A DNA stretch of 64,000 nt from Paraspadella gotoi (Eukaryota > Animalia > Chaetognatha), in NCBI GenBank assembly GCA_051294375.1, contig CM119271.1, forward strand, positions 2,370,677-2,434,676, written 5' to 3'. How positions within the stretch are numbered: position 1 is the first letter of the stretch; every line of letters begins with the position of its first letter. Below the pieces are notes generated by a model. That model made no database searches. It was given only the letters and a program-made list of their open reading frames with translations, and was not told the DNA's origin. Made by a program: the position numbers and the translations under genes. Below are positions 5,972 through 57,749 of the stretch, in pieces.

Positions 5972-7039
5972 ATAAAATGAAAAAAAGAAAAAGGAACAAG
6001 CTCTTTAAGCACAAAGCTATCAGAATCGCGAAATTCGAAGTCGCTCATGTTACAGGAACATAGAGCAATCCCGTTTGCAATTTTAAGTTTGTAAACTTTC
6101 CCTTTCATTTCTATAGTAAAAATGAGGTTTGAAAATTCTCCGGGATGAGTAGTGCATTTCCCCTGGCTTGTTTGATTATTAAATCCTTTATCAAATGCCA
6201 TAAAACGAATAGGACAAGCTTTTCAGATGTAACGCTCTCGGAATCGTGCGTTTTTACAAGTGTTTTTTAACCGAATTTCTGGCAAACGCGTTTGCAATTT
6301 GGGTAGTCAGATTTGAACGGAATTCTCTATTAGAAAAATGTTGAATTTTTTTTAAGCGAGATTCTCGTCTACTTCTGTGATGTTATCTTACAATACCAAA
6401 CAGATCAAATATATTAATGTTATGACAGAAAAAAGCCAAACATCAACGATCGAAAAATAAAAATTAAACAAAACCTCAATCTCGCTCCCGTTCTCTGACG
6501 GTGACCACTGACTACTGACCACTGACCACTGACCACTGACTGAGTCGACACTCTCTGCAATTCCTGTTGTGAACTTAAGTCGTTCAAAGCAGAAGAAGAA
6601 ATCGAGAAAATCTTTTTATTTATTTTTTTTTAATCTTATTCTTTTTTATTTGATTCCAGACGGTGGGTCAGTCTGTAATTTTCTGAGTATTAATAAAAGT
6701 AAGCTAAATATACCAAATCTGTTACACGACGTCGCCAATAATGATTGAAAAAGGTTTCTTGTTAGTTTCCCTTAAGTATTTATTTCGGACATCAAAAGTG
6801 ACGAATTCCTTATGGGTTTTTTTACCCTCATTCGCTCTGGATAATTATTAAGTTGATACGTAATCTTCCATCCCTCCTTTATTTTTATATCCAATTTCCT
6901 CTCACCTTTTTTTTATCATTTTAACTAACGCTAATTTTGTCTTGTAGGTTGGTTTATTGTATTTTTGTTACTGATTTTGATTTTTATTGCTTTGGGCGTT
7001 TTTTAAATATTTTTTATTTACAAAAAAAAAATAATGTTT

Positions 7040-7552
7040 TATGAAATTGGTACAACCAATATAAAAATATATCCATTCTCATTTAATAAATAAGCTATCT
7101 TGCCCCTGACTTTGGACAGGCTTTGGTGGTTTAAGGCCTCCATCACTCTTACAAGATAATGACATAGCAGGTCCCTGCAAGCTTTCAATCAAGACTTTCT
7201 CACAGTCTCGTTTTCACTCCCAGAGTACCTGGCTTCCATATCAATGAAGTGATATATTTCAAAGAATGTTTCAATTGTATGAAAAGACCATTTACCCTAG
7301 TATTAGATCGGGGAATACTTATTGTACTCCGCACTAGCATCAAATACAAGGAGCTGAATTTTATGAAATTGGTACAACCAATATAAAAATTATCCATTCA
7401 TTTAATAAATAAGCTATCTTGCCCCTGACTTTGGACAGGCTTTGGGTGGTTTAAGGCCTCCATCACTCTTACAAGATAATGACATAGCAGGTCCCTGCAG
7501 CTTTCAATCAAGACCTTATCTCACCAGCTTCTCGTTTATTCACTCCCAGAGT
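7040..7552 (-). mobile_element. Unclassified interspersed repeat, family B, partial tandem dimer (~322-bp unit plus ~190 bp)
   Basis: Unit starts tatgaaattggtacaaccaatataaaaattatccattc. Near-identical copies at 13810-13948 (opposite), 28394-28588 (opposite) and 53222-53526. A short end fragment is at 7862-7890 and probably at 1-12. All copies share one end and are variably truncated at the other. Confidence 0.75.
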
Positions 7553-13149: not shown

Positions 13150-13421
13150 AAAAGAAAAACGAGAACGGTAATTCCAATGTGTTCCGCCGCAGTGACTGTA
13201 TTTCCCTTTGATCACATGATATGACATGACATGACATGACATTACATTTTAGTCTTAACAAATGAGCAACCAACTATAGCTATAGTATAGTATAGTCCTA
13301 TAGAATAAGCAAATCATATGCATTTTTAACGTAAGTGGGACAGACTGTCGGACAGACATACCGATGGACCGACTGACCAACCGACAGACCGACCGAAAAG
13401 TGACTTATAAAGTGACTAAAA
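13150..13421. mobile_element. Family A copy
   Basis: Shares cttaacaaatgagcaac, acgtaagtgggacagac...ccgaccgaaaagtgacttataaagt and ccgcagtgact with the 15.3 kb and 18.5 kb copies. Confidence 0.65.
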
Positions 13422-13809
13422 AGAGGCCTGTGATCGGAGAGTCGGGGAGACTTGTGGGGGCGTGGGCGTAGCATCGTGGGAGCGGGGTTCGAAAAAAGGT
13501 TTGATATGAAAAAATGATCACAGACGACCGGAGGAGAAGGAAACGAGGAAAAGAACGAGACTGTTTTATCTATCTTTTCCGAGAATGCCACATTTCTATT
13601 CCTATATCTCTAGACTTGATTTTAAGCCTGATTTTTAACCCTAATCTATTACCAAACTATTAACCCAATGTCAAACCCTTATCCCTAAACTTAACCTAAT
13701 CCCAAACCCTAATCTTTAACCTTATCTTTATCCCTAACCCTAATCCAACTTTAATCCTTAATCCTTAACCAAGTTCCTAACCTAATCTCTAACAATAACA
13801 TATGAGTTA

Positions 13810-13948
13810 TGGAGGCCTTAAACCACCAAAGCCTGTCCAAAGTCAGGGGCAAGATTTTTTTTTTTCTGAAATAAAAAAGACAATTTGACAAGATAGCTTA
13901 TTTATTAAATGAATGGATAATTTTTGTATTGGTTGTACCAATTTCATA
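13810..13948 (+). mobile_element. Family B truncated copy
   Basis: tggaggccttaaaccaccaaagcctgtccaaagtcaggggcaag...ggataatttttgtattggttgtaccaatttcata, with a short internal insertion. Confidence 0.7.
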
Positions 13949-15310
13949 TATGCCTAAAATGTATTTAATTCCAAATTTAAGATGAAATAGGGCGTTCTGG
14001 GAATATAGTAAGGCCGGTTTTTATTTTGCCTAAAGGTTTGGCGGTTTTTCTTTTCGTTTTGTTTTTATTAGTGTTGCAGACAGTTGGTTGTCAGAAGCAA
14101 ACGCGTGAATAATCAATGGAATAAGTGAATATTCTTTTTCCTTTTTTTTCGCCTTTGAACGAGGCTTGCGTTGCCCCAGGTGTTTATTTTTTTTTTTTTA
14201 GCAAAACAAGAACTAATTCGGTTTCCGATCGTGGTTCCCTTCTTGGAGTATTGAAGGTGCTCCGGAAAAAAACAAAACAATAATTTTATGAGGGCAAGAT
14301 GAACCGGAGAAAATGCTTAATAGGGACACATTTCTTCTGATAACAGCGTCTTTTATCCGTTGAAACACTGTAACAATCTCCGAGCTTACCTTCGAAATAT
14401 TTACGTCATCATCATTTGTATCGATGTTTGGCTCTCGTTCTTGAAATTATTTTGAGGGTAAGTAAAACCCATTAATAAGTAGACCGAGATAAGCGAAGAG
14501 CGTTGACCACGAACAAACTGTTTTCTAATTAGAATTCTACGTCAGAATAGAATGGACCTGGCAATGTAAGGACATGAATAATTGGGCAACGAGCAGGGCA
14601 AAGCGTGGATAGGAAAGGAAAGGCAAAGTGAGGCAAAGCGAGGCAAGATAAGGTCATAAAAAGCAAAGCAATGTAGCGATTCAGGCATCGGAGCGAACGA
14701 AGCATCGGACAAAAGAACAGCAGCAATTCGACCGCGCGAAGGATGCGACTTTCGCCGGGATGAAAAAAGGGTTCACCGCCGCTTTCACTGTGAAAAGAAA
14801 AGGGCGATTTTCGTCGTCTCGATCGCATTAGCTCTTATCTTATCTCGCGAAATTTAAGAGAAGGTCACGCCCGCTGCGAGTTGACGCCATCAACATCTTT
14901 GTCGCTTCGGTCGTCGTCGTCGTCGACATTGTTCAGCTTGTCATCAACTCTTCGGACGTGTTGAAGTGACCGAGAGGAAAGAGAGAGGGAGTCACCATGC
15001 GACTCTGTCCCCCAATTTGTCTGGGAATTTTTTTTTCTTCTGTTGTCTTGCTTTTCGAATCCGGCGGTAGGCTTACTACCAGTGGTTTAACCGGCCCGTC
15101 CTCCTTTGCAAGGACCGTTCCGACCAGGGCTAAAACCCGGGACCATTGGGTTGGAAGAAGAAGCGTTAGCCCGATGCGCTCTTGAGGGGATGATGAACGG
15201 AACCGCCTTATCTCATAGTCGTCGTCGTCATCCTTCTTGTTGTCCCTGTATTTCTTTAGAGAAAAAAATAAGGAACGGTTATTCCAAGGGTGTTTCTTTA
15301 AAAAACAAAA

Positions 15311-15507
15311 GGCGGCGCCAGTAGTCGCTTAGATTTGATTCTTAACAAATGAGCAACAAACTATAGGCAAGTTATAAGAATAAATACAATACAATACAAT
15401 ACAATATAAGCGTTTTTAATGTAAGTGGGACAGACCGACGGACAGACATACCGACGGACAGACATACCGACGGACCGACCGAAGAGTGACTCGCGGCGCA
15501 ACTAAAA
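15311..15507. mobile_element. Family A copy
   Basis: ggcggcgccagtagtcgctta...cttaacaaatgagcaac...gtaagtgggacagaccgacggacagacatacc...ctcgcggcgcaactaaaa. Confidence 0.65.
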
Positions 15508-15943: not shown

Positions 15944-16480
15944 GAAACTTTTTCCCAATTCCGTTTTGAGACTCTAAAGTCTTGCTATATTCTACTGCCT
16001 GAACCTATTCAAATTTTTCTTGTACCAATCAATAGCTCTTTAAAAAAGTTTTAATTTTTATGCATATTTTCTTAAAATTAAAAAAGAAATAATGGTGTAT
16101 TTAAAGCTAACTAGTGGATCCTTTTTTTTTGCGCCGCAATGTAAAATAAATTCATGATTCTTATGTAAGTGTCTTTAAGTGATTGTGTCATTCAAGCCAT
16201 TGCAACGACGATGACAACAAAGGGCAGCAACGAAGGAGTCAATGACGACTCCTTCAGAGACGTGTGAGCGAATAAAGCCTTTCACGGACTCTTGGGTAAA
16301 AGAATTATTACTCTTTATTGTTCTCCGAACAGCGACAACCGATTCCCCCAGTGGGTTGACCTGGGTGGTGGTTCCAGTTGGCTTTCTCCTTCTTTGATAC
16401 TGTCTGATTAACAAGTGATCAATCGCAGATCATCTAGTTACTATACTTCTCACCTAACTTTAAGTCGAAATCCCATTAAT

Positions 16481-16527
<47 letters not shown>

Positions 16528-17669
16528 CCCGTTTCAGGTCAACGTCTCTCACTCCTTAAGGGAAGAGAATGAACGTCAGCGCCAACATAACAGGCGAGTT
16601 CCTATTGTTGTTATTGTTATTGTTTTTCTTAGACTGTGAAACTGTTAGTTAATTAGTTAACCGACTTTATGACATTTATGCATTTATGTCATATCGACTC
16701 GATTAAATCGGTTAAAATATTATGAACAACATGTAAAATATATATTTCCATTAAAACAGAGGACACAAAACGTACGAGAAATGAAAGGAGAAACGATGAT
16801 CACAATTGAAACAAAAAATTGAGGATCTGATAGACGAGAATGAAATTCTTAATTTTTGAAGGCTTTCTTTTCGAAAAGCGCCCCATTTCGGTTCCTTAAT
16901 CCCTAAACTTAATCTTAACACTAATATTTAACCTTAATCTGTCACAAAACTTATAATCTTAATCCAAAATCCAATCACTAACCTTATCCTTAACCTTAAT
17001 TTGTAAACTAATTCATACCATATTCCCAAACCTTTATTTGATTTTTAATATAAGACATTCAAAGTCGAAACGGAAATGTTAAAAATTATTTCAGTTTCAT
17101 GTAGAACAAGCAACAATTGTAAAAAAATGTAAAAAAAAAATCTATTTCGAATTTCTCGTAAAAAAAACATACTGAGTGACCCTCTTGAGAATCGATTCAA
17201 CCTTCGAGAAAGAAAAATATCCGTATTTTCTCGTTTGGCAAAGACCGACACAACAACAACGACAACAACGACAACAAGTCGGGAAAAAGGTAAGGGAAAG
17301 GATGGAATGACGGAAGGGACAACAGGAATTTTAATGACTGAGTCTTTTCATTGACAGAGAAGACAAAATAATATATAAATTACTTCCTATAAAGAATGAT
17401 ATATAATATCTACTAATTAGAAAACTTGGGTAGGAAATACTTTTTAACCGTATGTTGTGGAGTTGCTCCCATTGCTCCCTCTATTTCCAAAAGATAACAT
17501 TAACATCCGTTTCCCAATTATATTTTTAAATATGAAATAAATCTGATAATAGTTAAATTAAATACTTATATAAATAAATATGCTAAACTTTTTATATTAA
17601 ATAGTCTTATCTAGTTTAATATAGTAAAACAAGTAATTTAAAATTGTTTTCATAAATAGTATAAAATAA

Positions 17670-18267
17670 ACCAGAATGGCCCATTTTATCTTAAAATTAG
17701 GAATTAGTTTAATTTTTTTAATAAAAGATAAAATTAGAGGTTAGGGTCTCGGATTAGGTTTTATCATAGGTTAGAAATTGAGGTTAGGGATTTAGTTTGT
17801 AATTAGGATTAGGGATTTGAGTTAAGGACTACCATTTATGGTTAAAGGTTAGGGTTAAAAATAAGGCTAAGGGTTCTGAGTTAGGGTTTAAGATTAGATT
17901 AAGGATAATGGTTAAGGATAGGTTTATAAGTTTAACAATATATTTAAATTAAATATTAAATTTAAAATTGTAGTCGGGCATTGCCTAGGTTCACCCCGCC
18001 TATAAGCATGATACCTTCATTCGTGACCTGGTGGCTCATTGAGTAAAGCCACTAGGTAACGGGTTCAATCCCAACCCGGTACCTACCCTGCGGGAAGCGT
18101 GAGGATGGCGCGGAAAACCCTCAAGCCTGGTTCCAAGCCCGGGACCCGTTCCATGGCTGCTAGAGGGGGTTAAAGAAGTTGCGGACAGCCCCACTTAGCT
18201 CCTTATCTACAAAATTAAATTCTGGGATAAAGGAACATAAATTGAGAACTATCGGAAAAGAGAGCCC
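17670..18267. mobile_element. MITE with TTAGGG-like interior, interrupted by the 243-bp element
   Basis: Degenerate ggttag/ggatta hexamers at 17735-17925. The right TIR aggaacataaattgagaactatcggaaaagagagcc resumes after the insertion. The left boundary is approximate. Confidence 0.55.
17969..18211 (+). mobile_element. 243-bp TGTAG...CTACA element with an internal tRNA-derived Pol III module (solo-LTR-like or atypical SINE)
   Basis: Flanked by aaat/aaat (17965-17968, 18212-18215). A-box-like tggctcattgag (18032-18043) and B-box gggttcaatccc (18061-18072) begin ~55 nt inside the element. Related copies at ~18805-18940 (+), ~24190-24390 (+) and ~57500-57710 (-). Confidence 0.7.
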
Positions 18268-18469
18268 TCTAATGCCAGAGAAAATAACAACAACAATAAC
18301 AACGAAAACAACAAAACAACGACAACCCTCTTCATCCTCTTTCTCTCGACGAGGTCGACCGTGGTTTTCCATTTCCCGCGATCCTTGAACTTCCACGTCG
18401 AGTCCGCCAATATTTTAGCGACAGGAAAGACACTCGAGCCCGAACTTGTCGATGTCATTGTTGTTTTTA

Positions 18470-18790
18470 TTTTAAGTTGCGCCGCGAGTACTCGCGGAGC
18501 AACTTTATAAGTCACTTTTCGCTCGGTCTGTCCGACGATCGGTCGGTCGGTCGGTATGTCAGTCCGTCGGTCTGTCCAACTTACGTGAAAGAGGCTCATT
18601 ACTCGCCTATAGTCGGTAGCTCATTTGTTAAGACAGGAAAAAATCTTCAATGTAAGTGACTGCTAGCGCCGCCTTTGGGAAATCCTAAACTTCAAAGAAT
18701 TAAAGACAAGATTCCGATGCAGTACGTGTCTAACATAAACAGGCTAAGAAAGTCACTGCGGCGCAACACAGATTTGAATTTCCGTTCTTG
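18470..18790. mobile_element. Helentron/DINE-1-like non-autonomous element, family A
   Basis: T-run, then subterminal hairpin agttgc-gccgcgagt/actcgcgg-a-gcaact, tataagtcactttt and a (GTCG/GTCY)n microsatellite. Homologous copies in the opposite orientation at 13150-13421 and 15311-15507, and a fragment at ~21045-21130. Confidence 0.65.
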
Positions 18791-18804
18791 TTTCAAAACT
18801 TTTA

Positions 18805-18940
18805 TGTAGCGGGCATCGCCCATTGCCCTGGTTGGCCGAGAAGTTCGTCGGCCTTTACATCAGTCGTTACCCGGTGGCTCAATGTGTAAGCTTTCAGCTA
18901 GTGACTAATTGGTTTTTGAGTTCAATCCCAATCAGGTACA
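18805..18940 (+). mobile_element. Diverged 5' part of the tRNA-module element
   Basis: Starts tgtagcgggcat. Contains acccggtggctcaatgtgtaagc...gagttcaatcccaatcaggtac and a possible anticodon arm tcag-ct-agt-ga-ctaa. Confidence 0.55.
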
Positions 18941-19791
18941 TATTTTAAAATTAGCGACACCCGTTAACCACCCTAGTCATGACAGAGAGGAATAAGTTTA
19001 TTGGCCGGATAAACCTGCGCAGTTGGCGTAGCCTCCTAACAGCATTGCATTTTGTAAATGATTAAAGCGGTCGGTCTAGACGTAAATTCAGATTGTCCTC
19101 AGTGAAACACTCACGAATCACGCTCCTCCCTTTTGATAAAAAAAGGTCATCGTGATCCGATTGAGGGATCGATTCGTAATCGCGTTAGAATAAACGACCA
19201 TCGGCTTTGAACCGTGACATCAATTTTTTTGTTTCCGGAATTTCCGTCAAACAAATCCCGATTGTAAATCCCCGACAAAGATCTGGCTGCCTTCTCTTTG
19301 TATATAAGAATGTATTCTTTTTCTATATGTGTTCCTTTGAGGCTTTGTCTCTGTTTTTGTAACCGGAAATTCAGTGGCTCCACTTTTAAACGATTTTCTC
19401 ACATTTTGACCCAAAGCTTTTTTTTTTTTAATCATTTTTTGACATGACCTTCATTCATGACCCTCGTTTATATGGAATAGGCGATTAGTAAGTGAATCTC
19501 TAGTGCTTGGTGTGATGAGATGTGATGTGACTGATAGTGATAAGCAGATAAGAAGTGAGTTAATATCGTGAGGAGTCTGCGGAAAGTCACGTGAGTGCTC
19601 CTGGGGGGGGGGAGTCTCGGAGTGAGTTAATGAGTAGCGAGCCTCTTGATCGAGTCGAGTGGAATTAATTTCAGAGAAGACAGAACGCGGAATGGGTGGA
19701 GATTACCTGAAGAGATCACGGGAGATCGAGGTCTTGAAATCACTTGGGACTTTTGAGGTTTACGAAAAAAAATAATTAGATTCACGGAAAT

Positions 19792-19849
<58 letters not shown>

Positions 19850-21773
19850 GGGAAGAAAAAGAGTATGAGGGTGGTTGTGAAAGAAACAAGGAAAAAAAGG
19901 AAAAGAGAAAATGAGAAGAAAAAAAGGAAAAAAAAAGAAAATAGAATAAAATGGTTCTCCGATGATTTCTCTCCATTTCTCTCAATTTGCCGAAAAGGTG
20001 GTCGCCTCTTCGGCCGCCCACTTCAGCGCCACCTTTCAACACCGTGGCTGCCGCTGCCGCGGCCGCTACCGCTACCGCCGCTGTCGTCGTCGCCTTCTTC
20101 CAACTCGCCCATCGCCCCCTACGCCACGCCATATAATCATAATCAATTAATTAATCACGTCGTTCTTAAACTTACCAGGTCAGGTGATAACGTTTTAGAT
20201 ATTCACCCTCTCACTCGATGCTTTCTCATTTCTCGTCAACTCCGTCATGTCATGTGATTCGCGGCTCCAGTCCTCGACGATGCCGACTCTTTTTACCCCA
20301 AATCTTCAGCTCCAGGTTTCGCCTCAGTGATTTTCTCTACGTCTCTTCAACCTACTCAAATTTTGTCTCCTACGCCTGGGCGACATGCGTCTACAGGCGG
20401 CGACATGAGGCGACCGGCGAAACGCTGCCGAGAGACGAATCCAATGACTCTGTCTGTGATACGATTTCAAACAGAAATCCCTGCGCCGATTGCTGGCCTC
20501 TGGAAATGATAACTAGTGACTAGTGACTAGTGACTAGTGACGCCTACTACATAAAAAGAAAATCACTGTTGCCTCAGTGAGGCCCGATCTCCTTCATTCC
20601 CCCTCTCGTCATCCTCCTCCTCCCAGGTAAAGCTAAGCGGGAATTCATAAAGAGGAGGAGGAGGAGAAAGATGCCTCCAAAATTAGAGTAGTGTATTTAA
20701 TAGCAAATCAGGAAGGTGAATTCATCAGACATGATATCATCGACCTATTGGAGGTAGTCGAATCACACTCTCAAACAGGGTTTAGCTCTATATGCCTCCT
20801 CCTCCTCCTCCTTCTCTCTCTTATGCATCAATACCGATTAAAGATGCCGACGACGCTAATTTCTGAGAAAAGGGAAAAGAAGGCGGAACCAGACGCGACC
20901 GTGGAAGGACCGCCAGGTTGGTCCCGATAGGGAGGTGATGTCTCGCGGGGATTTAAACCTCTCGACTCCACACTGAAGCCACCGATAACTATTATCTGTT
21001 GCCAGACATCAGAAAAACGTAATATTTCTTTATACTCTCATTTTCATATACGCCGCGAGTGATCGCGAGGTAAATTCTATATGTCACTTTTTGGTCGTTC
21101 GGTCGGTCAGTCGTGATACGTCATTTTTGGTCAATTACTAACCGTAACACCATTACTCACAGCCCGATCAGAAGTTCGGGACCTTGTATGCAACGGACGG
21201 TGAACTGCTCGCGGCATCGTCTTCTACAGGTGGTTAATTTAGTTTTAATTTCTGACCTCCTGCTTTTGACATTTTTTTTGTTACTTACATTATTATCAGT
21301 TTTTCAATATCGCGAAAAAATTAACGATTAAGAATAGAGCCGGCAAAAAAAATATATCGGTTTCTCACGATTGATCAATAATTATCAATAATCAATATTC
21401 TGATAACGACGATCGTTATGTTTCGTAGATATTATTGTTTAAAGTTTTATAATAAATCAATAACTATATAAAAACTACTGATGTTAGAAATTCTAAAAGC
21501 AATCTCAGCGCGCATCTGTGCCTGGACTCTTATCAAGAAAACCAATCAAGTAAACGAAAAAATAACCAAAAAAAAAGAAAGAAGTATTTTTAGTTTAGCA
21601 GAAAACGAAAAAAATGCTAAGTACTTTTTAAGTTAAGAGTCGAGTCCTTTTTTGTAAGGCTACATTTTGTAATTTTTAAATCTAGGTACAACTTCAAAGA
21701 GACGTTATGATTTCCGTTTTACAGTTAAAAATGTTTAAGTCTAACAAGGAAAAAAAGACAGAATACGAATGAT

Positions 21774-24189: not shown

Positions 24190-24391
24190 TGTAGGGGGTT
24201 GCCCTTTAGTCGGGCATTGCACAATGCTCATTGTGCACAAGTTCGATCCCCAATGGACCCTACCCTGCGTGAAGGACGGCCTTTCACTGCCTTGGGGCCG
24301 AGGTAAAAACCCTCAGGCCTGGTTTAAGCCCATGAATCCTTTCCGTGGATGCAAGAGGGCTGACGGACGTTGCGGAGAGCACACTTATTCA
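24190..24391 (+). mobile_element. Diverged copy of the tRNA-module element in GPCR intron A-B
   Basis: Starts tgtag. Shares tagtcgggcattgc, gttcgatccc, ctaccctgcg, aaaaccctca.gcctggtt..agccc and gttgcgga.agc.cactta with 17969-18211. Confidence 0.6.
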
Positions 24392-26076: not shown

Positions 26077-26239
26077 AACCGTTCCTTAATCTTTTCTGAA
26101 TTTTCTCGTCATTCTTCTTATATTTTTCCACCACCCGCTAACCCACCTAATCCTAATCCTCTATCCAATCCCCTACCCAACGCCCTCTATCAAAATCCCC
26201 TATCCAACGCCCTCTATCCAACCCCTATCATCTCCGAAG

Positions 26240-26406
26240 ACGAAAGATGGTTTCGCCGACGAACGCGCTCCTAACGGCGATCGCCGTGGCCGATATGGCA
26301 ACGATGGCGGCTTACATCCCTTTCATCTCCCGGTTCTACATCGTTTCCCGTATGAAACCGACGCCGGATCACGGCTGGGGCTGGATCACCTACATGATCT
26401 TTCAAG
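26240..26406 (+). CDS. GPCR exon C, ICL1-TM2-ECL1
   Basis: Acceptor ctccgaag|, donor |gtgagg. Translates (R)[55 protein letters not shown]. The M.SPTN.lLt.lAvAD...m..YIP motif is typical of myosuppressin/sex-peptide-type receptors. Phase fits exons B and D. Confidence 0.95.
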
Positions 26407-28158: not shown

Positions 28159-28393
28159 CAAGAGAGAGGAAGGACGATCGGTCATAGAGACATACATCTT
28201 TGATTTGTAATAAATAGATTTCGTCTCTAGTTGATGACAATCCGCGCGCACTGTGCCGAACACTGTGCCGCACACTGTGCCGCACTGCGCCGCACAGTTT
28301 AATAGAGTACGACTTGCAAAAGATGAAAGCTTTTGAAACCGAGAATCGGGGAAAAAAAAACTTTAGAGAAATATAAAAATAAAGATAAATATA

Positions 28394-28588
28394 AGCCAGG
28401 TACTCTGGGAGTGAATAAACGAGACTGTGAGAGAGTCTTGATTGAAAGCTTGCAGGGACCTGCTATGTCATTATCTTGTAAGAGTGATGGAGGCCTTAAA
28501 CCACCAAAGCCTGTCCAAAGTCAGGGGCAAGATAGCTTATTTATTAAATGAATGGATAATTTTTATATTGGTTGTACCAATTTCATAA
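28394..28588 (+). mobile_element. Family B truncated copy
   Basis: Reverse complement of ~7040-7235. Confidence 0.75.
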
Positions 28589-31029
28589 AGTCATTAAGAC
28601 TCAGAACTGGAAAATTTAAACAGTTGTTATTTTATATCTCTTGTATACCAATTCAAAATCATTTTCTAATCTCAAACGAAACGAAAGAAAGAAAACAATA
28701 TTTATATTTCAAAAGTTCAGTAACGACATTATTACAGATGAAAAAAAAGGTGTGACAACAGCATTTAATCTTTTAATTTCACTCCCAGTTGAAATACGTG
28801 TAGCTTATTCCTTGTGCTCTAATTAGTTTCTTTCATATCTTATCTCTTCATTCCCCACGCCAAAGCTCCACCCCTCCCCTCTCGCCAAACCTCGCTCCAA
28901 GTTTCTCTCGTTAAAGCGAAACAAAAAACCGCGAGGGCAACTTAATCTTTTTTTAAGGTTTTTCTTTGTTTAAGGTTTGTTTTTTTAATTCTTAAATTCT
29001 TCTCTCAGTTCTCTGCTTTCCTTGGCAAATTAAAATGGGTTTGATTTTAATTTACAGCCTAAACTACCGGCAAATAATTTCGCACAATTAATTTGTGGAA
29101 TGGGCATCAAACTAATTAAGTAAAACTAATTAAACTAATTAAACTAATTAGGTAATTGAAAACGATAACGGAGTGACTTTTTTCGCCCGTCTTTTATAAA
29201 TTAATTTTAAGTACTTACTTCAATGCAAGTGAGATATTGTATTAAATTTGTTTGGTAAGAGGTTCCCCGCAATTTTTTATCTCTCTCTCTCTCTCTCTCT
29301 CTTTCTCTTCTCTCCACGCTGACGTAATAATCTTAAGAGGTCGTTCTTGCAGAAAATAAAGAGAGAGAGAAAAGAAAAAGAAAAGAAAAAGAAAAGATTT
29401 AAAAGCGAAATAAAGAAACGAAAAGATAAAAAGTCGACGCAAAATCGATTGCGGAGCCGAAATTTAGGGAAGGAGAAAAGAAAAGAAAAGTGAAAAAAAA
29501 GTGAAAAAATATAAAAAAGAAAGAAAAAAGAAAAAAGGAAAGAAAGAAAAGGTAAAAAGGAATACAAAATATTATATTTATGCGAAGCTAAAGCAAATAA
29601 AAGAATCCAGTGGAAAGTCATACAAACGATCTTAGTTTTTTTCAGAATGAGGAAATCGGTTTAGCGCCTTATCATGACCGAAAAAGGTAGAACATTTTGA
29701 AGTTGAGTTCCTGGTTATTAAAAAGCATTAAAAAATATTCTTCAATAGAATTCTTAAAAAAATTCTACAAGTCCATGATCGCCAAAAGATTACTAGGGTC
29801 CCAAAACGTAGATCGCAGAACTTTACGGTTTACCCTATTTGGAATTATTTTTAGAATTTTCTTTGTTTTATACTATTTCTCACTCTATATCTCTATATAG
29901 TAGAATATTAACAAAATTCAGAAAGGAAGTATGCATGTTGGGGTACATGACGTACCAACTAAATATTAAATTTTTCTAGTTATCAACTTTTTGAGATATA
30001 GACAAACATAAATTTCTGAAACCAATAAAGATAGCCTCGGGAATTCATTCGCCATTTTTATCTCGACTTTGAGAGATGACAATAAACATGAAAATACCAA
30101 GATGTGGTGAGTGCCAGATAGAAAAAGGAATTTTAATTTTCGATTTTCACTTTTATTTCGCAAATCCTCGTTAAAGTTGTTTGGAACATCCAAATTCTAG
30201 AAACAACGAGGGGAAAAATAAAACACTGCAATATGCAAATTATTTTAATGTTCGTAGCAACCTGTCAGTTTCGCTTCCACCCCGCACGATTTATTTACTC
30301 TCTTTTCTTTATTGTTTTCTTTTACTGTTACTTCCTCTCTTGTTATTTTAAAATGAATAAAATAAAATAAAAATCAAATAGAGAGTGAGACGTCAAAAAC
30401 ACGTCTTCGAAGGTGTGAGAAAGTTGGAATAGAGGAAAAAGAGGGGCGGGGCAGAGAGAGTGCGAGAGGAAGAAAGAAAGATGTATATATATACATATAA
30501 CCCAGAGACAAAGAGAGTCTTTTTCTAAATCGACGGCAGCAATTATCCTTAAAAGTCATTAAATCGTCTTCATCCTTACTTCACCATTATCTCCCGTCGC
30601 CTCAGTTTAAAAAACGACGATTAAAACAGCAATAACATAAAACAAGTTTGAGCAAACCATGCCGGATCTGCCCACGATCATTAGCGGTAATTAATTAATT
30701 AATTGATTAACTTGATCCGAAATGTTTGTTTTTTTATGTCTTTTCGTCACTAACCACGACAAAAGCAATGACGACGACGATGGCGATGAAGACAATAATG
30801 CCGATAACGATAGACTTGATTGATTGATTGATTGAATAATTAATTAATAGATAAATAAATTGATTGATTGAGTAATTAATTAATAGATAAATAAATAGAT
30901 TGATTGAATACTTAATTGATTGATTAATAACTGATTAATTATTTGATTAATTAATACATCTTGCATTTATATTTTACATAAAAAGAAAAAAAAGCATAAT
31001 CAATTAGTGAAAGGGTTTTTTTGTTTTTT

Positions 31030-31410: not shown

Positions 31411-32766
31411 AAAAATAAAACAAACAAAAAACTACTGCTATTGAGAGTAAGACAATACGATGAGGCGAGCCGCTCGGGCATTTAAATTAATACATATATG
31501 ACATATATATTTAAAACGAGTTTTTAAAGGTTAAACCGATTTCTGCGCCATCGAGCGGAAGCGTAAACGACGAAGATTAACGACGACGGAGATGAGGACG
31601 ACAACAACGACAACGACTAAAACAAGAACAACTTTCGAAGACGTAGAATTTAATCTAAGGCGAAAACGACGTTAATGAGCGGAAGGACGACGACGACGAG
31701 GACGACGACGACGCTAACGACCGCTAGCAGTACGTCTCTACCTCCACGCGGTGCTAGCGGGAACATCCTTTCGGATGGCAAAAGAGACGGGAGGCTCAAG
31801 CGATCAAGGAGAAGGAAAAGCCGAAAGGCGGAATCCCGATCTGTTTTCTTGAGTAACGGAGTGGGTCAGGCCCAGCCGACCTGGTCACCTCCCCCCTCTT
31901 CCTCACCTTCCCAATCCCCTCCCTCCCTCCTCCTCTCTCCCTCTCTTCCTCTATCTTTCCCCACCCTAATTAAACAACATTCTGGCTGCAGCCTCTCAAG
32001 GCAAGTCTCAAGTCTACCATCTTAGACAGCTTTGAGAGTGAGGTAGTCCCTCGTTGGACGAATGCCTTTCAAGTCAAGTCAAGACGCTAACGACCGTATC
32101 CATGACAACTATGACCCAGGCAAAGACGATGAGTGGGCGTGACCGATTGACGACTCTCACCTGAACGACGCAAACCGCGCGCGGGAAACGCAAGTCGAGC
32201 GTAAGATGTACGCGTAATGGACTTACGGCGCTGACGACGACGACGACGACGACGACGACAAAGATGACGCCTTCTACGCCAAATCGGCGGAACGTTTATT
32301 TGCGTCCAGGCGTCCGAGTGACCTCGTTCGTAATTACGGTTAAAGAGTTTGGCAAGCATTCGCCGCAATTGACCAGGTTTCCAACCCAGCGATCAATTCC
32401 GTTCGCTTCAGCTGTGACTTTGTGATTTTAAGTTAAACTCATCGGCTTAAGACCTCGAGGTTCGCCTTACCTCCAAACTCCTTCGGCCAATCGCTCGATG
32501 GTCAGTATGCAAAGTAAAAAGAATGGGTTAGTAATCTCTTTACTCTCTGATCTCTCCCCATTTTCTTCGTCTTTTTTCTCGCCAGCCTTTAACTTACCCT
32601 CTCCCTGATAACCTTACTCTATATTACTCCTTTCCCGACCGCCGCACCCTGATCTTCTGTCAGAAACTGTATCAATCTCTCGACAATGCGAAGCCGAAAC
32701 TTTTCCCCAAGAAGGTCGCGTCAGGGGGCAAAGAGGGTTTTTCGGAAAGTGAGAGTGATATTAAAA

Positions 32767-34326: not shown

Positions 34327-34936
34327 AGGTTATTGGTTTTCTGAAGAAAGAACAAATGAGTAATCAAGTAATGAGAAAACATTAAAGCAGTAATTGAAAA
34401 AAAAAACGATAAAACTTTTTTTTTTTTATATCGTCAAAAATTTAATCTTGTCATCTTCGCGAATGGATAGAAAATAAATCATTGATAAGTACTTTTAAAG
34501 AGATCGAAATATTTTCTGCCTAAATCCTCGTGTCTGTCTCATCGGTGAATTTCTATTCTAATGCGATTCAAGAAGAAGAAAAGAAGAAAAAAATTTCAAA
34601 CAAAGATTTTAATTTTCGGAGAAATTTGATCGTTTTCAAAATCGTTGAATCGCAAAAAAAAAAAAAAAAAAAAATCTGAAAGAGCTCCTACTTCGATGAC
34701 GCCGTTGACGCCGCCGGCCTCGGCTGAGTTAGCGGCGTCGTGACGCCGGGGATTTAGGTAGCGCCGGTGACGCCCGTGACGCCGTGAAGAGATCGATTTC
34801 ATTGAGCGAAAAAATTCGAGATGGAAAATTGGAAATCTCAGCGGAGAGTGGAAGGGGGGCGGGGGACGTGGGGAGGTTGACCGAGGGGATTGTATGAAAG
34901 GTGTTGATTTATTTATTTATTTACTTATTTACTTGT

Positions 34937-35011
<75 letters not shown>

Positions 35012-35422
35012 TTTGTTTATTTGTTTATTAATTTACTTATTTATTTATTTATTTATTTATTTTTTTATTTATTTATTTCTGTATTTATTTAATTCTTTAT
35101 TTATTTATTTGTCAAGAGTGCGAAGAGATAAGGAATTGGGATGAACGGTTATTTCGTAAAAAGAGAAATTGTACGAGGAAGTGAGATGGCGGGTATAATA
35201 TGGAGATCGGCCTGGGTGTTCTTGACATTTTATGAACATTACTTTTTTTAATATTGGAGTCATTTTGGATCAATGCCAGAGATTGAGAGGGAGAGAGGGG
35301 GAGAGAGAGAGAGGGAGGGAGAAAGAGAAGAGAGAGAGAGGGAGAGAGAGAGAACGGAAAAAAAATAGAAATTTTTTTTTCAAAATATTAAATAAGAGAG
35401 AGAGAGAGGGGGGAGAGGGATA

Positions 35423-35475
<53 letters not shown>

Positions 35476-35712
35476 AGGAGAGAGGAGGAGAAGAGAGAGA
35501 GAGAGAGAGAAAGAGTGAGAGAGAGCAAAAGAGAGAGAGAGAGGAAGAGAGGGGGGGAGAAAGAGACAAAGGAAAATTTTAAAAAATTGTCTCAAAACAT
35601 TGAATAAGAGAGAGATAGATAGATAGAGAGAGAGGGAGAAAGAGAAAGAAATTGGAAAAATAATAAAAAAATGAATCAAAACATTTATTAAGAGAGAGAG
35701 AGAGAAAGAGAA

Positions 35713-35750
<38 letters not shown>

Positions 35751-36196
35751 TGATTGAGAGTGAGAAAGAGAAACAAAACATTGTTTCAGAAACTCGTTCT
35801 GGTATTTGACATCATAATTGGAATATTGGTATTTTCAGAAGAATCGTTTCCTCTTGGTACAAATAAGTTTCTGTCACAATTTTCCGAAAGAGCCACATTT
35901 CTGTTCCTAGTCCAAATTTTAACCAAAGTATTAAACCCTAATCTCGTACTTAAGCCTAAACCTAACAGCTAACCTAAAACTAATTCATAATCATGAAAAG
36001 GGGATTTCATTTCAAAACGATAATAAACCAACTTACAACTTACAATATCCATGTATAACAGTTTCTAACAAACTTTGTTCAAAAGGTAACCAACGATATC
36101 CGACGACAGAAATTAAGGAAAAGGCAAAACATAAAAGGAATGGCTAAGGAAATGACTAAAGGAATTACAAAAGGAATGACCCATATAAAGAGAGAA

Positions 36197-36285
<89 letters not shown>

Positions 36286-36870
36286 ATTTAAACTCGTCCT
36301 CGTTACGATTCTCACTTTTGAATTCCGCGAAAAATTTCATCTCGTCAAAGTTTAAATGGTTTTTTTTCCTGGGGGGGCGGGTGAGATGAAAATAAAAAGT
36401 ATAGAAGAGATGAATAAAGGGGAAAAAAATAAAGATGAAGAATGAGAAAAAATAATAAAAAAAATAAAAAGTTAATAAAAAAAGAAACGAGAAAAAAATG
36501 CGAAGATATTTATAAATCAGAAGAAATAAAAAAGTGTCATTAAAACTAAAAGGAGAGACGGCACCTGGGGCTCGCCTTTTTTCTTTTTCTTAAAAGTGAA
36601 TTTACTTTTTTATTCTCGTTCATCTTCTTCCTACAAGTTCACCAATGGAGAACTTTTTTTATTAATGGAATATTTCCTTTCTCCTCAGGCGTGACAATAG
36701 TAAATAGACTTTTTCTGTTACGAGTAGGATTTCTTTGCACATTGTACTGAACAAAGTCAGTCAGTGCAAAGTCACTCGACCAAGTTCGGTTCCAAGAAGC
36801 GTCGTTCACCTACATTTTATCTTTTTTTCTTTCCATTTTCAATTTCTCCCTCTCTTGAGTTTTTGATTAA

Positions 36871-36903
<33 letters not shown>

Positions 36904-37558
36904 NNNNNNNNNNNNNNNNNNNNNNNNNTGCAGGTTATTGGTTTTCTGAAGAAAGAACAAATGAGTAATCAAGTAATGAGAAAACATTAAAGCAGTAATT
37001 GAAAAAAAACGATAAAACTTTTTTTTTTTATATCGTCAAAAATTTAATCTTGTTCATCTTCGCGAATGGATAGAAAATAAATCATTGATAAAGTACTTTT
37101 AAAAGAGATCGAAATATTTTCTGCCTAAAATCCTTCGTGTCTGTCTCATCGGTGAATTTCTATTCTAATGCGATTCAAGGAAGAAGAAAAGAAGAAAAAA
37201 ATTTCAAACAAAGATTTTAATTTTCGGAGAAATTTGAATCGTTTTCAAAATCGTTGAATCGCAAAAAAAAAAAAAAAAAAAAAAAAATCTGAAAGAGCTC
37301 CTACTTCGATGACGCCGTTGACGCCGCCGGCCTCGGCTGAGTTAGCGGCGTCGTGACGCGCGGGATTTAGGTAGCGCCGGTGACGCCCGTGACGCCGTGA
37401 AGAGATCGATTTCATTGAGCGAAAAAATTCGAGATGGAAAATTGGAAAATCTCAGCGGAGAGTGGAAGGGGGGCGGGGGACGTGGGGAGGTTGACCGAGG
37501 GGATTGTATGAAAGGTGTTGATTTATTTATTTATTTACTTATTTACTTGTTTTTATAT

Positions 37559-37615
<57 letters not shown>

Positions 37616-38038
37616 TTTTATTTATTTGTTTATTATTTTACTTTATTTATTTATTTATTTATTTATTTTTTTATTTATTTATTTCTGTATTTATTTAATT
37701 CTTTATTTATTTATTTAGTCAAGAGTGCGAAGAGAATAAGGAATTGGGATGAACGGTTATTTCGTAAAAAGAGAAATTGTACGAGGAAGTGAATGGCGGG
37801 TATAATATGGAGATCGGCCTGGGTGTTCTTTGACTTTTATGAACATACTTTTTTTAATATTGGAGTCAATTTTGGATCAATGCCAGAGATTGAGAGGGAG
37901 AGAGGGGGAGAGAGAGAGAAGGGAAGGGGAGAAGAGGAGAGGAGAGGAAGAGAAGGGAGAGAGAGAGAACGGAAAAAAAATAGAAATTTTTTTTTCAAAA
38001 TATTAAAATAAGAGAGAGAGAGAGGGGGGAGAGGGATA

Positions 38039-38093
<55 letters not shown>

Positions 38094-38315
38094 AAGAGAG
38101 AGAGAGAGAGAGAAAGAGGAGAGAGAGCAAAAGAAGAGAGAGAGGAAGAGAGGGGGGGAGAAAGAGACAAAGGAAAATTTTAAAAAATTGTCTCAAACAT
38201 TGAATAAGAAGAGATAGAAGATAGAGAGAGAGGGAGAAAGAGAAAGAAATTGGAAAAATAATAAAAAAAATGAATCAAAAACATTTATTAAGAGAAGAGA
38301 TGAGAAGAAAAAAAG

Positions 38316-38351
<36 letters not shown>

Positions 38352-38815
38352 TGATTGAGAGTGAGAAAGAGAAACAAAACATTGTTCAGAAACTCGTTCT
38401 TGGTATTTGACATCATAATTGGAATATTGGTATTTTCGAGAAATCGTTTCCCTTGGTACAATAAGTTTCTGTCACAATTTTCCGAAAGAAGCCACATTTC
38501 TGTTCCTAGTCAAATTTTAAACCAAAGTATTAAACCCTAATCTCGTACTTAAGCCTAAACCTAACAGCTAACCTAAACTAATTCATAATCATGAAAAGGG
38601 GATTTCATTCAAAACGATAATAAACCAACTTACAACTTACAATATCCATGTATAACAGTTTCTAACAAAACTTTGTTCAAAAGGTAAACCAACGATATCC
38701 GACGACAGAAATTAAGGAAAAGCAAAACATAAAAGGAATGGCAAGGAAATGACTAAAAAAAATTACAAAAGGAATGACCCATATAAAGAGAAAAAGAGAG
38801 AGAGAGAGAGAGAGA

Positions 38816-38858
<43 letters not shown>

Positions 38859-39479
38859 AGAGAGAGAGAGAGAGAGAGAATTTAATCCTCGTTCGTTACG
38901 ATTCTCACTTTTGAATCCGCGAAAAATTTCATCTCGTCAAAGTTTAAATGGTTTTTTTTTCCTGGGGGGGCGGGTGAGATGAAATAAAAAAGTATAGAAG
39001 AGATGAAATAAAGGGGAAAAAAATAAAGATGAAGAATGAGAAAAAATAATAAAAAAAATAAAAAGTTAATAAAAAAGAAAACGAGAAAAAAATGCGAAGA
39101 TATTTATAAATCAAGAAGAATAAAAAAGTGTCATTAAAACTAAAAGGAGAGACGGCACCTGGGGCTCGCCTTTTTTCTTTTTCTTAAAAGTGAATTTACT
39201 TTTTTATTCTCGTTCATCTTCTTCCTACAAGTTCACCAATGGAGAACTTTTTTTATTAATGGAATATTTCCTTTCTCCTCAGGCGTGACAATAGTAAAAT
39301 AGACTTTTTCTGTTACGAGTAGGATTTCTTTGCACATTGTACTGAACAAAGTCAGTCAGTGCAAAGTCACTCGACCAAGTTCGGTTCCAAGAAGCGTCGT
39401 TCACACTACATTTTTCTTTTTTTCTTTCCATTTTCAATTTTCTCCCTCTCTTGAGTTTTTGATTAATCTTTCTCTCTCT

Positions 39480-39560
<81 letters not shown>
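34327..39560 (+). repeat. ~2.6-kb direct duplication (34327-36903 and 36932-~39560) separated by a 25-N gap
   Basis: The copies are colinear and differ mostly by homopolymer and microsatellite indels. Probably an overlapping-contig artefact. Confidence 0.9.
34908..35110. repeat. (TTTA)n microsatellite. Other simple repeats: (TTTC)n 50850-50975, (ACTCAGT)n 33944-33991, (ACTAGTG)n 20512-20540, (CTAAGGT)n 63792-63857, and many (AG)n/(CT)n tracts
   Basis: Direct inspection. Confidence 0.9.
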
Positions 39561-43605: not shown

Positions 43606-43639
<34 letters not shown>

Positions 43640-46600
43640 GATAGAGAAGCGCGAGAGCGTCAAAGACCTAAAAATAATATAATTCAGAGCGAAAATCATG
43701 GAAATGTGAAATGGAGAAAAATGTGTTGAGAAGAATCGAACACATAAAAGTCAAACGCAGCCTCTAACATTGCATATTGTAAACATAAATAATAAATATA
43801 ATCTTTGCACTTTATGTATGTAATTCTTTTCAAAATAAAAACTTTCCCCATGATTTAATAATTCCGGGGGAGAAAAAAAAAGGTCCACAAGTGGACAGGC
43901 GAAAATTCATGTCAGTTAAATTCTACTGATCCGAGTTTTTAAGTTCGGACATTCGGCAGGAAGGCGGAGGGGGGGGGTGGTGGGGAAGGACGATGGGTAG
44001 CTCTGATGTCCGGGGAAAAAGGGGGCGTTAAGGGAGATAAGAGGGAAGTTGATTGATGGGGAAAGGGAACAGGGGGAAGGTAGAAGGAGAGGAAGTGGAG
44101 GAGGAAGTTGGAAATAGAAATGAGAAAGGAAGAAGAAAGGAGGAATGGTGGGATGGAAAGGGGAAAGAGGAGAATAGAAGAGATTATGGGGAAGTCCGCG
44201 AAAGGGGAGAACGGAAAGATGAAAAGTGGGAAGGAGGGGACTGGAGAAAAGGGACGAGAAAAAGCGGAAAGAGGAAAGAGGGAAGTACGAAAGGAAGAAA
44301 GGTCCGGAAGAAAAGTAGGGTAGGAAGAGACAAGAGGAAGTGGGGAAGATGGAATTGGAAAGTGGGAAAGGGGAGAAGCGGAAGTGGAAAGGGGAGCGGA
44401 AAAAGAAGGATGTGGGTGGCAAGATGAAAGTGGAAGTGTGAAGGGGAGAAGCGGATAGTTGAAGAAGGAAGGGTTGTGGGGATGAAAACAGTGAAAGTAG
44501 GAGAGGGCGGAAGAGAGAGCGGATGGAATGGGAGAAGGTAAGGGCAAGAGAGAGACGGCAAGCGGAAGAAGGGAGATTGAAAAGGTGGAAATGGAAAAGC
44601 GGAGGAGCGGAAGCGGAAGAGGGAAGGGTGGGAAGATGAAAAGTGGAAGTGGAAAAGGGAGAAGCGGAAGAAGGAAATGGGAAGTGGAAAGGGAGAAGAA
44701 GAAGCGGAAGAAGGAAGGGTTAGAAGATGCAAAAGGTGAAATGTAGAGAGGGGAGAAGCGTAAGTTTCCTGTAAGGGAGCAGACGAAGCAAGGGAACGGA
44801 ATTTCATTGACATTTGTGAAGAAACTGGGAATGAGAACGCGGAGGGACCGGGAGACACCAGGAGGCCTGGGCTTTGAATAAGGTCAAAAATTCCGGGACA
44901 TCGATGCTCGCGTGAAACTTTAATAAATCACACTCAGACTTGGAAGGTTCGGGGAAATATCTCGTCTGAAAATAAAAAAATGTCCGTTAAAAGAATCCTA
45001 GAAAATTGAGGCGTGCGTCGATGCCATCGAACCGGCGCCAAAATGAGAACGGGGCGCTTTTGGGTCTCCTCGTGTGGCGCCGAAGAATGCCAATAAAGTC
45101 GATTTGGCGCCGATGGCATCGAGAAATGCAAAAGGCTCTCTTTTCCCAAAAGGCGCCTCATTTCTTGTTTCGTATATCAATGAACTTAATCAGTATGGAT
45201 TTAATTATTTAGCATTACTCTTTAACTATAATCATTAACGTTTAAACCTAATCACCAACCTCGCATCTTTAAACGAATCTTTTTAAACTTAACAATTAAC
45301 TTAATTTCGAATTTCTTTCAAAAAAAAAAATAAATAAAATAAAATGGGGCGTTGGGGGAAAATAAGGGCGAATGGGCTTGTCGCTCAGGCGAGAACCCCA
45401 ATTAAGACAATGCGGCATGTGGTGACTGGGACGCCCAATGACGGGCCGCGGTAAACTGATAGCGAGGATTTGCTTCGCCGTCGCTGATGCGTTCCGCCGA
45501 CGCTGCGACGCTGGATGCGCACCGATCGCATGACTTTTCGATGGCACTCAATACACCTCGATGGCATGTTTCCACTCTCAACTCTCGTTGGCAATTTTCT
45601 TAGAATGACGTCAGTATGAAAGGATTTGAGAAATGGAGAAGAAAAGGAAGGAAGGAGTGAGGAGGAGGAGGAGAGAAACGAACATAACTTGAATAGAAAT
45701 TGAAAAGTCGGAACATGACCAATTGGAGACGAAAGCCGACAACTACGACAACGACAAACTACGACCATTACAACGACACACAACCAACAACTACAACGAC
45801 GGACGACGATCAGCGCAGAAACCAGGCGACATTTCGACGTAATTAAATCAAATGTAATTTAAAAAATGAAGGGAGGAAAAATTGTCTCTTTAAAAAAAAA
45901 AAATTAATGTTACAACCGAATAAAAAAATATTGCATAGGGTGTGTCGAAGAATATGAGATTGGTTGGACAGAAAAGAATTGAAACATCGACGACGACGAA
46001 CGCACGACGGACGGACGAGAGAATACGCAATCCTTTTTTTTTTTCAGCAAACAACCCTCGGCAGAAAAAAAAAATATTTAAAATCTGGCTCGAAATGGGA
46101 TTCGACAACGCATGTTGAGCTTGAATGACAGAAAAAGGCGTTTCCGGTAGAAGTGGGGATGGGGAAGTGGCGGCTGTGGCGCGGCCGTTGCTGGTGACGG
46201 TAGGATGGCGTACATGGCAAAAATGAAGATCGCGAGGGCTTAGAAACGGCGGGGAAAACAGAGGCTGCTTGAGTGGGCAAAACAGCGGCGGAGGTTCGCA
46301 ACTGTCAAATGCGAATGAGAGATGATTGAGAAAGAGAAACCTGGCGCTTGATAGAGGGATTAAACAAAGCCCTCTATTTTAAAATATGGCTTCGCTTCAA
46401 GATGGCTGCTCGTCTCTTAAGATAGGCGGCGCCTTCAAAACTGGAGTCTCTCGCTACAGTTAAATAGCTGTATCGCTTCAAATTTGTTAAATCTTCTTTT
46501 AATAAACGCTTATTTTTAAATCGTTCGTAACGGCCCCTATTTTTTAAATTGGTGCTCTCTTTTAAAATTGGTTTCTCTTGAAAAAAATGGCATCTCTTAG

Positions 46601-46691
46601 ATGGTCAGCGTTTAATGGCTTAAAACGCGGGGGGATATTCACTTATGTATTAAACAAATTTAACTCGTTGAGAGATGCAGAGAGAGACGTC

Positions 46692-46740
<49 letters not shown>

Positions 46741-49406: not shown

Positions 49407-49408
<2 letters not shown>
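36929..49408. repeat. ~6.2-kb-arm palindrome centred on the N gap at 43040-43064
   Basis: 43065-49408 is an indel-rich reverse complement of 36929-43039, for example tgcaggttattgg at 36929 versus ccaataacctgca at 49408. Confidence 0.9.
41380..42135. repeat. Polypyrimidine minisatellite (cttccgcttctcccctttccacttccacttttcatc-like units)
   Basis: Recurrent ccacttccacttttcatcttcc. It explains the long low-complexity ORFs at 41276-42380 and 43916-44858. Confidence 0.8.
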
Positions 49409-51592: not shown

Positions 51593-51722
51593 TCGACAAA
51601 GGCGGGCTACAAGATCGGGACCATGGTGAACGCCGCTCGAGCGATCGTCGTCGTCGTCGTTCTCACAGTCGTCGCCAACGTACCCAACTACCTCGCCTTC
51701 TATCCCCAGTTTTACGCGAATG
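51593..51722 (+). CDS. GPCR exon E, ICL2-TM4
   Basis: Acceptor caaccaaccag|, donor |gtaagg. Translates STKAGYKIGTMVNAARAIVVVVVLTVVANVPNYLAFYPQFYAN, a hydrophobic helix ending in the N.P.Y motif. Confidence 0.9.
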
Positions 51723-57499: not shown

Positions 57500-57710
57500 T
57501 CCCTTAAAGGGTTTGAGGGTTTGCTCATCGGCCCCCAAGGCGGCTTACGACGGTCCATCATGCTTCCCGGCAAGGATAAGGTACCGGGTGGGATTGAACC
57601 CGTACCTAAGTGTCATTGAGCTGATGGGCTTTTACTCAATGAGCCCAACCGGTCACAACTGAAAGTGTCATGATCTAGGCGGGGTGAACCTATGGCAAAT
57701 GCCCGACATA
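57500..57710 (-). mobile_element. Copy of the tRNA-module element (minus strand)
   Basis: Reverse complement reads gtcgggcatttgccataggttcaccccgcct...gctcattgagtaaaagcc...gggttcaatcccacccggtacct...aaaccctcaa. Confidence 0.7.
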
Positions 57711-57749
57711 TACACATTTATAATGGTTTTTCATACTTATTAACAATTT

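Follow-up and report, generated by a model that had tools for sequence, protein, structure and literature searches.

What kind of mobile element is the 243-bp insertion that interrupts a dispersed repeat at 17969-18211 of the window, i.e. the whole 64-kb stretch of Paraspadella gotoi DNA analysed here? The first-pass annotation had proposed a solo LTR of a Pol III-driven miniature LTR retrotransposon, possibly of an undescribed family, rather than an ordinary SINE. The reading we favor, with a probability of roughly 60%, is a solo LTR, now decayed, left by a small non-coding retrotransposon of the Helenus/TRIMp3 type, the intact LTR of which is predicted to be self-cutting. A solo LTR fits best because the element has a sharp 5′ end without a drop of depth there, a 4-bp target-site duplication (TSD), TG...CA termini and tRNA-type boxes, and carries no tail. 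The tRNA-bearing TRIM part is of a kind already known; the unusual feature is a twister ribozyme motif in the 3′ half, which the annotation had overlooked together with the element's status as a deletion derivative.

Ends, promoter segment and copies of the insertion

The 243-bp insertion starts with TGTAG, ends with CTACA and has AAAT on either side; its parts, and the host repeat around it, are as follows.

17660..18275, + strand: dispersed host repeat broken by the element (approximate limits, class uncertain)
17965..17968, + strand: left TSD, 4 bp, AAAT; empty-site fit best at 4 bp
17969..18211, + strand: LTR-like unit TG...CA, 243 bp, probably a solo LTR, derived by deletion from a high-copy unit of roughly 285 bp
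18025..18082, + strand: tRNA-like segment, its start placed from the A-box position; ~13 nt of the anticodon arm gone
18032..18043, + strand: A box, matching TRGCY and reading TGA in place of YGG
18062..18072, + strand: B box, fitting GGTTCRANNCC
18212..18215, + strand: right TSD, 4 bp, AAAT; empty-site fit best at 4 bp

Because identical 4-mers arise by chance in these flanks (two local flank 4-mers are identical with p ~0.01-0.03), an empty-site test was run, in which 0-8 bases were taken off the right flank and both flanks were fitted without gaps to four paralogues of the host repeat, all within the 64-kb window. The fit peaked at four bases in every paralogue (43, 38, 38 and 40 of 60), the optimum being unique in three and tied with three bases in the fourth, and so upheld the annotated AAAT duplication. 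The host was confirmed as a dispersed repeat, while its assignment to a MITE was not: the focal host repeat 17660-18275 showed no terminal inverted repeats, and in an inverted-repeat test two of the four hosts beat 99% of shuffles, one of which looks terminal.

The tRNA-like part begins ~56 nt inside the element, agreeing with the A and B boxes annotated ~55 nt from the 5′ end, and both the box signatures of Helenus, TRGCY at 18032 and GGTTC at 18062, and its TG...CA LTR termini are present. As annotated, a scan of the element's sequence found no poly(A) or simple-repeat tail, the longest T run being 2; the layout of a tRNA-derived SINE, namely a tRNA head at the 5′ end plus an A-rich or simple-repeat tail, is thus not that of the element. 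The anticodon varies, being AGT in the copy at 18805, CAT in the majority of the sequencing runs and deleted in the focal copy; the AGT anticodon pointed out near 18900 is present but not conserved, and ARAGORN returned no tRNA genes in the 64-kb window.

Three diverged copies, two of them starting with TGTAG, had been reported from the window and are real by alignment, with scores of 101 (18805), 137 (24190) and 171 (57710) versus null maxima of 86, 83 and 92, respectively.

18805..18945, + strand: diverged relative starting with TGTAG; AGT loop in the tRNA-like segment, 3′ end unclear
24190..24390, + strand: decayed copy starting with TGTAG; tRNA part and twister P3/P4 both degenerate
57510..57712, - strand: 3′-truncated copy, longer tRNA-like segment, UAA, P2, T2 and P3 kept, P4 missing

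The family was viewed through contigs of four public sequencing runs (X1, X3, X5 and X9, the last presumed to be RNA as a guess) aligned to the element. Summed contig depth over the element reached 0.4-1.2 million in X1 versus ~100 for locus-unique contigs, and this depth, which is not a copy number, suggests a family of thousands of copies. At the 5′ edge the depth jumped from 8,674 to 576,296 in X1 (~66-fold), and similarly in X3, X5 and X9; near the 5′ end it was similar to that of the interior, and the runs showed no gradient of truncation, so that the family is unlike the 5′-truncated elements made by TPRT. Among the best-supported rows listed, loose ends before 17969 occurred on 124, 97 and 71 contigs (X1, X3 and X5) with an agreement of 0.40-0.42, and therefore one fixed start is joined to many different flanks. 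The junctions of this very locus were also recovered, the 3′ one in X1, X3 and X5 and the 5′ one in X5. Variable 5′ truncation and a LINE-like tail, named in the annotation as signs against an LTR, were seen neither in the runs nor in the sequence, respectively. Its proposal that ends and TSD length should be constant in the family was borne out for the 5′ end in the runs, whereas none of the three other, decayed window copies pairs TG...CA with a matching flank of 4-6 bp, which leaves the solo LTR as the best fit, still unproven. An LTR-internal-LTR unit was not found within the 64-kb window, and no PBS was observed.

Most copies are longer at three points, by ~13 nt in the anticodon arm, by ~19 nt behind position 18109 and by 9-10 nt behind 18185-18189. 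By this comparison the focal element, short by ~13, 19 and 9-10 nt, is a deletion derivative, and the family unit would measure ~285 bp. With its ~13 additional nucleotides, the majority form has an A-B spacing of ~43-44 versus 30 in the focal copy, a spacing that is tRNA-like as judged from the sequence. The majority 3′ end in the runs reads ...TATCCAC versus ...TATCTAC in the focal copy; therefore the perfect 5-bp TGTAG/CTACA inverted ends, real in the focal copy, are not the family norm. The family terminus is probably CA, with loose ends spanning 30 letters and six of the 16 listed pieces reaching at least 18207. A second read alignment, directed at the 3′ terminus, yielded no joints among the rows listed, and a 12-nt motif of the majority 3′ end had no window match at ≤2 mismatches. 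A G6 tract lies directly before one 5′ start, at one joint seen in X1 and X3 (two of the four runs, among the joints listed), and gives a weak, single-locus hint of a PPT. Internal deletions across the ribozyme region were frequent among the joints listed.

A pattern scan of metagenomes gave 24 loci, which were rejected as chance T-arm matches since none aligned beyond 45 nt and 14 carried tRNA genes; the element pattern had no match in viral and prokaryote collections.

The twister motif in the 3′ half

In the available part of the published domain table, type-P5 twisters run in the order UAA, 4-nt P2, GC, P3, P4 and L4 (Liu 2021 Table 1, PMC8501958). The corresponding parts of the focal copy are listed below.

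18097..18105, + strand: P2 3′ strand and L1 strand; GA + GGA, where GGA pairs with UCC of L4 as T1
18106..18117, + strand: deletion site, roughly 19 nt; loose ends of the runs at 18107-18112 in 4/4 runs
18118..18143, + strand: P3 3′ strand, P4 stem and L4 loop; GUUCCAAGCC; Rfam RF02684
18159..18167, + strand: competing helix segment, complementary to 18118-18125 in the predicted fold of the focal copy

Both P4 with the L4 loop GUNNNAAGC at 18127-18142 and the T1 pseudoknot with GA-NNN at 18101-18105 are present. A descriptor combining P4/L4 with GA-T1, composed after sight of the sequences, occurred once in the window and in 4 of 20,000 dinucleotide shuffles. In an Rfam search of 281 nt, Twister-P5 (RF02684) ranked first of four matches (18098-18142, 14.3 bits, E 1.2, below the gathering score of 37.6), a score obtained on the focal, deleted copy, the intact family form being known as pieces and not as one scored sequence; hammerhead had no match in the same 281 nt. 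The twister of the focal copy surfaced in this search only: it was not among the 49 whole-window Rfam matches nor among the five chance-level ones in 16000-21000, which included no tRNA either, and the copies at 24190 and 57710 had no Rfam match.

The ~19-nt deletion removed the UAA cut site and T2 together with half of P1 and the 5′ strands of P2 and P3. The UAA cleavage loop and T2, absent in the focal copy, are kept in the loose ends of the runs and in the window copy at 57556-57512, which has lost the palindrome of P1 as well as P4. The majority order in the runs is GA-GGA, a 6-nt palindrome, UAA, 3 nt, GC, an 8-bp P3 and P4, and P4 of the majority pairs U-A where the focal copy has U.G (18141 G>A). 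The family majority thus shares GA + T1, UAA, T2, P3, P4 and L4 in order with the type-P5 twister (RF02684; PMC8501958 and PMC5408937, in the parts available); the palindrome-UAA-3 nt-GC-P3 stretch pieced from the loose ends matches the order in the published domain table, where the L4 of Sma-1-119 is identical to that of the element (PMC8501958). It differs from this type in a P1 consisting of a 6-nt palindrome and a P2 5′ strand of 3 nt instead of the usual 4, and the focal copy in lacking UAA as well.

With UAA, T2 and half of P3 lost, the focal copy is predicted inactive; it is likely dead, self-cleavage being predicted lost together with the cut site. When this copy was folded without pseudoknots, the pairs of P4 and P5 reached probabilities of ≤0.03, because 18159-18167 pairs with the P3 strand; folding of the whole element gave z = -0.56. 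Two other assignments were rejected: a type-P1 twister via GAGGG at 18163, in which P2 and T2 cannot be placed, and a loose GA-GGA pattern, which was uninformative.

A second repeat of the window, family B, lies at 7037-7342 (-), 7359-7552 (-), 13801-13948 (+), 28393-28589 (+) and 53222-53527 (-). It is young, with 92-97% identity among the long copies and a tandem pair, and has a fixed 3′ end, variable 5′ ends and no A/B boxes, a layout that we take to be reminiscent of Penelope-type terminal repeats. An intact-looking type-P5 twister sits ~70 nt before the 3′ end in four of the five copies, scoring 25.1-25.8 bits with Twister-P5 (best E 0.0011; Rfam gathering score of 37.6 not reached), and the family B descriptor, likewise written with the sequences in view, matched four times in the window versus none in 30 shuffled windows. 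Family B has no significant similarity to the element (alignment score 80, null maximum 86), and its twister shares the odd layout of a 6-nt palindromic P1 and a 3-nt P2 strand. Its letters are compensatory in T1 (UGG/CCA versus GGA/UCC in the element) and T2 (AC/GU versus GC/GC), and its palindrome is AGGCCU versus CGGCCG. Such recurrence of the same oddities with compensatory letters, as read from the sequences, counts for selection on the motif.

The motif may nonetheless be crippled, in view of its 3-nt P2 5′ strand and a P1 unable to form a hairpin. In folding, both palindromes gave 6-bp self-duplexes (-10.7 kcal/mol for CGGCCG and -9.1 kcal/mol for AGGCCU) and no hairpin. According to the abstract of a review, a twister without P1 retains activity.

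Relation to known elements and competing explanations

tRNA-bearing TRIMs are a named class, Helenus/TRIMp3 (Kojima 2024, PMC10886601, available in part), whose animal members have 4-bp TSDs and whose table, in the part available, does not include Chaetognatha. The suggestion of an undescribed family stands in part: six motif probes from the element had no LTR match in the accessible supplement of PMC10886601, one chance match falling in an internal region, while the tRNA-bearing class is already named. The element is like Helenus in being a TG...CA unit within the LTR size range (≤323 bp) with A/B boxes and a 4-bp TSD, in a class where solo LTRs are common (PMC10886601), and on these box and terminus features its membership is probable rather than proven. 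It is unlike Helenus in the ~130 nt that follow the tRNA part and hold the twister motif, and in lacking a T run; the available text of PMC10886601 contains no mention of a ribozyme. By eye, however, the LTRs of Helenus-2_SyJa and Helenus-2_SyUm (cynipid wasps) share the layout of TG, tRNA-like part, ribozyme core and CA, with a motif that, also by eye, is a hammerhead (CUGAUGA...GAAA core, complementary loops) and not a twister, and that is unannotated in the available parts of the same paper.

Plant LTR retrozymes resemble the element in being non-coding LTR elements with an LTR ribozyme, a 4-bp TSD, solo LTRs and a likely Gypsy helper (PMC4918200), and differ in having a hammerhead, residing in plants and having no tRNA-derived promoter in the text available (PMC4918200; PMC7761336, PMC5680766; each available in part). 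Metazoan retrozymes are described in the accessible review text (PMC7761336/PMC5680766) as being without LTRs, PBS and PPT. As LTR retrozymes have a hammerhead in each LTR and the motif here is of the twister type, the element may be retrozyme-like in the model below and yet fall outside the retrozyme definition. Published retroelement twisters, in the sources at hand, sit in non-LTR RTE/Perere-3 elements, whereas that of the element is in an LTR-like unit. In the literature searched, with Repbase, Dfam and subscription journals outside it, there was no twister in an LTR or TRIM and no palindromic dimeric twister; the available text of a study of chaetognath mobile elements (PMC2997562) contains neither 'tRNA' nor 'ribozyme'.

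For the favored Helenus/TRIMp3-type reading, we infer a two-LTR parent, Pol III read-through, double cleavage, circularisation and a Gypsy-type helper. In such a parent, transcription by Pol III would begin at the 5′ LTR's tRNA-like boxes and, because the LTR has no T run, would read on past it. The twister in each LTR would then cut at U^A and yield a unit-length RNA with one LTR's worth of sequence, which by analogy with plant retrozymes could be circularised and then tRNA-primed at a PBS. A Gypsy-type helper would copy and integrate the product, leaving TG...CA ends and 4-bp TSDs. Since P1 is only a 6-nt palindrome, we propose that cleavage would likely take place in a dimer, held together by pairing between the P1 palindromes of the two ribozymes on a transcript.

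A wider claim can be put forward tentatively, at somewhat less than even odds: that the family represents an animal LTR retrozyme lineage with a tRNA-type Pol III promoter and a palindromic-P1 twister that cuts only in pairs, so that two LTRs license release of the unit circle and solo LTRs stay quiet, and that a non-LTR-like repeat of this genome has this twister variant too.

The element could instead be the solo LTR of an ordinary Helenus-type TRIM that carries the twister as a functionless, captured relic and replicates through a linear, terminally redundant RNA made by Pol III (or Pol II); we regard this as unlikely though worth serious weight. All the LTR evidence agrees with such a relic, as do the non-canonical P1 and P2, the competing helix in the fold, the sub-threshold Rfam scores and the frequent deletions of the ribozyme region among the joints listed. 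Against a relic stand the same non-canonical layout with compensatory T1, T2 and P1 in the unrelated family B, and the lack of a T-run terminator in the LTR, where many published Helenus LTRs (by eye, in the sequences available) have one right after the B box.

That the element is SINE-like, with a tRNA promoter and a ribozyme, mobilised by non-LTR machinery and showing TG...CA and AAAT by chance, is improbable. A Pol III promoter plus a self-cleaving ribozyme is known from SINE-like repeats such as schistosome Sm-alpha, and twisters from RTE/Perere-3 elements (both from partly available sources); moreover, the TSD is seen in one copy only, in AT-rich DNA. The schistosome repeats do resemble the element in that a Pol III promoter precedes a self-cleaving ribozyme yielding unit RNA, and differ in being tandem, non-LTR and of the hammerhead type, with TG...CA ends and a 4-bp TSD not described in the accessible part of the report (PMC6765202). 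What speaks against a SINE-like origin is the 5′ end fixed ~56 nt upstream of the tRNA part without truncation gradient or tail, the empty-site fit at exactly 4 bp, and the opposite pattern, variable 5′ and fixed 3′ ends, of family B in the same window.

4-bp TSDs and TG...CA ends fit Gypsy integrase in general. An autonomous or large Gypsy-type element as the parent of the solo LTR would agree with that, no internal region having been seen, and a non-autonomous DNA transposon whose short ends are TG/CA is conceivable, but we hold both to be very improbable, given that Pol III promoters suit long coding RNAs poorly (as argued in the available part of PMC10886601) and that the inverted ends are ≤5 bp and imperfect in most copies.

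Should the Helenus/TRIMp3-type reading with a self-cutting LTR be true, an animal LTR with a tRNA-type promoter and a twister would link LTR retrozymes and Helenus TRIMs, explain how a TRIM transcribed by Pol III obtains defined RNA ends although it has no terminator, and extend the role of the twister beyond RTE elements; a twister that works only with a partner, joined to it by a palindromic P1, would be new among natural forms. The focal copy is decayed, and its value is that of a marker of the family.

Other features of the window

A degenerate unit at ~15000-15240 (-) shows a B-box-like and then a twister-like remnant; it had no Rfam match and no significant similarity to the element. An HDV-like ribozyme match (RF00094) lies at 31720-31791 (+) in a single copy, with 37.4 bits, a gathering score of 50 and E 0.089, and is overlapped by two related families. 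A very high-copy repeat at 18470-18620 (+), whose start is fixed at 18470 and which holds a palindrome as well as a GTCY-type microsatellite, has relatives at 13242-13413 and 15329-15491; we presume it to resemble Helentron-associated (HINE/DINE-1-like) elements.

Larger duplications involve 34327-39501 and 43616-49408, one direct (2.6 kb, 95%) and one inverted (5.9 kb, 88%), the inverted 5.9-kb copy of which may be lower-quality sequence or an assembly artefact. Exons at 26238-26405, ~51600-51740 and ~63183-63314 read as one GPCR on the + strand with introns >10 kb, and a search for the GPCR exon ahead of the element had no success. For the exon at 26238-26405 there are 106 relatives, the best 55% identical, and all five of the top relatives tested are Srw-type GPCRs, which marks the DNA as animal without pointing to a phylum; we assume the receptor to be myosuppressin-receptor-like.
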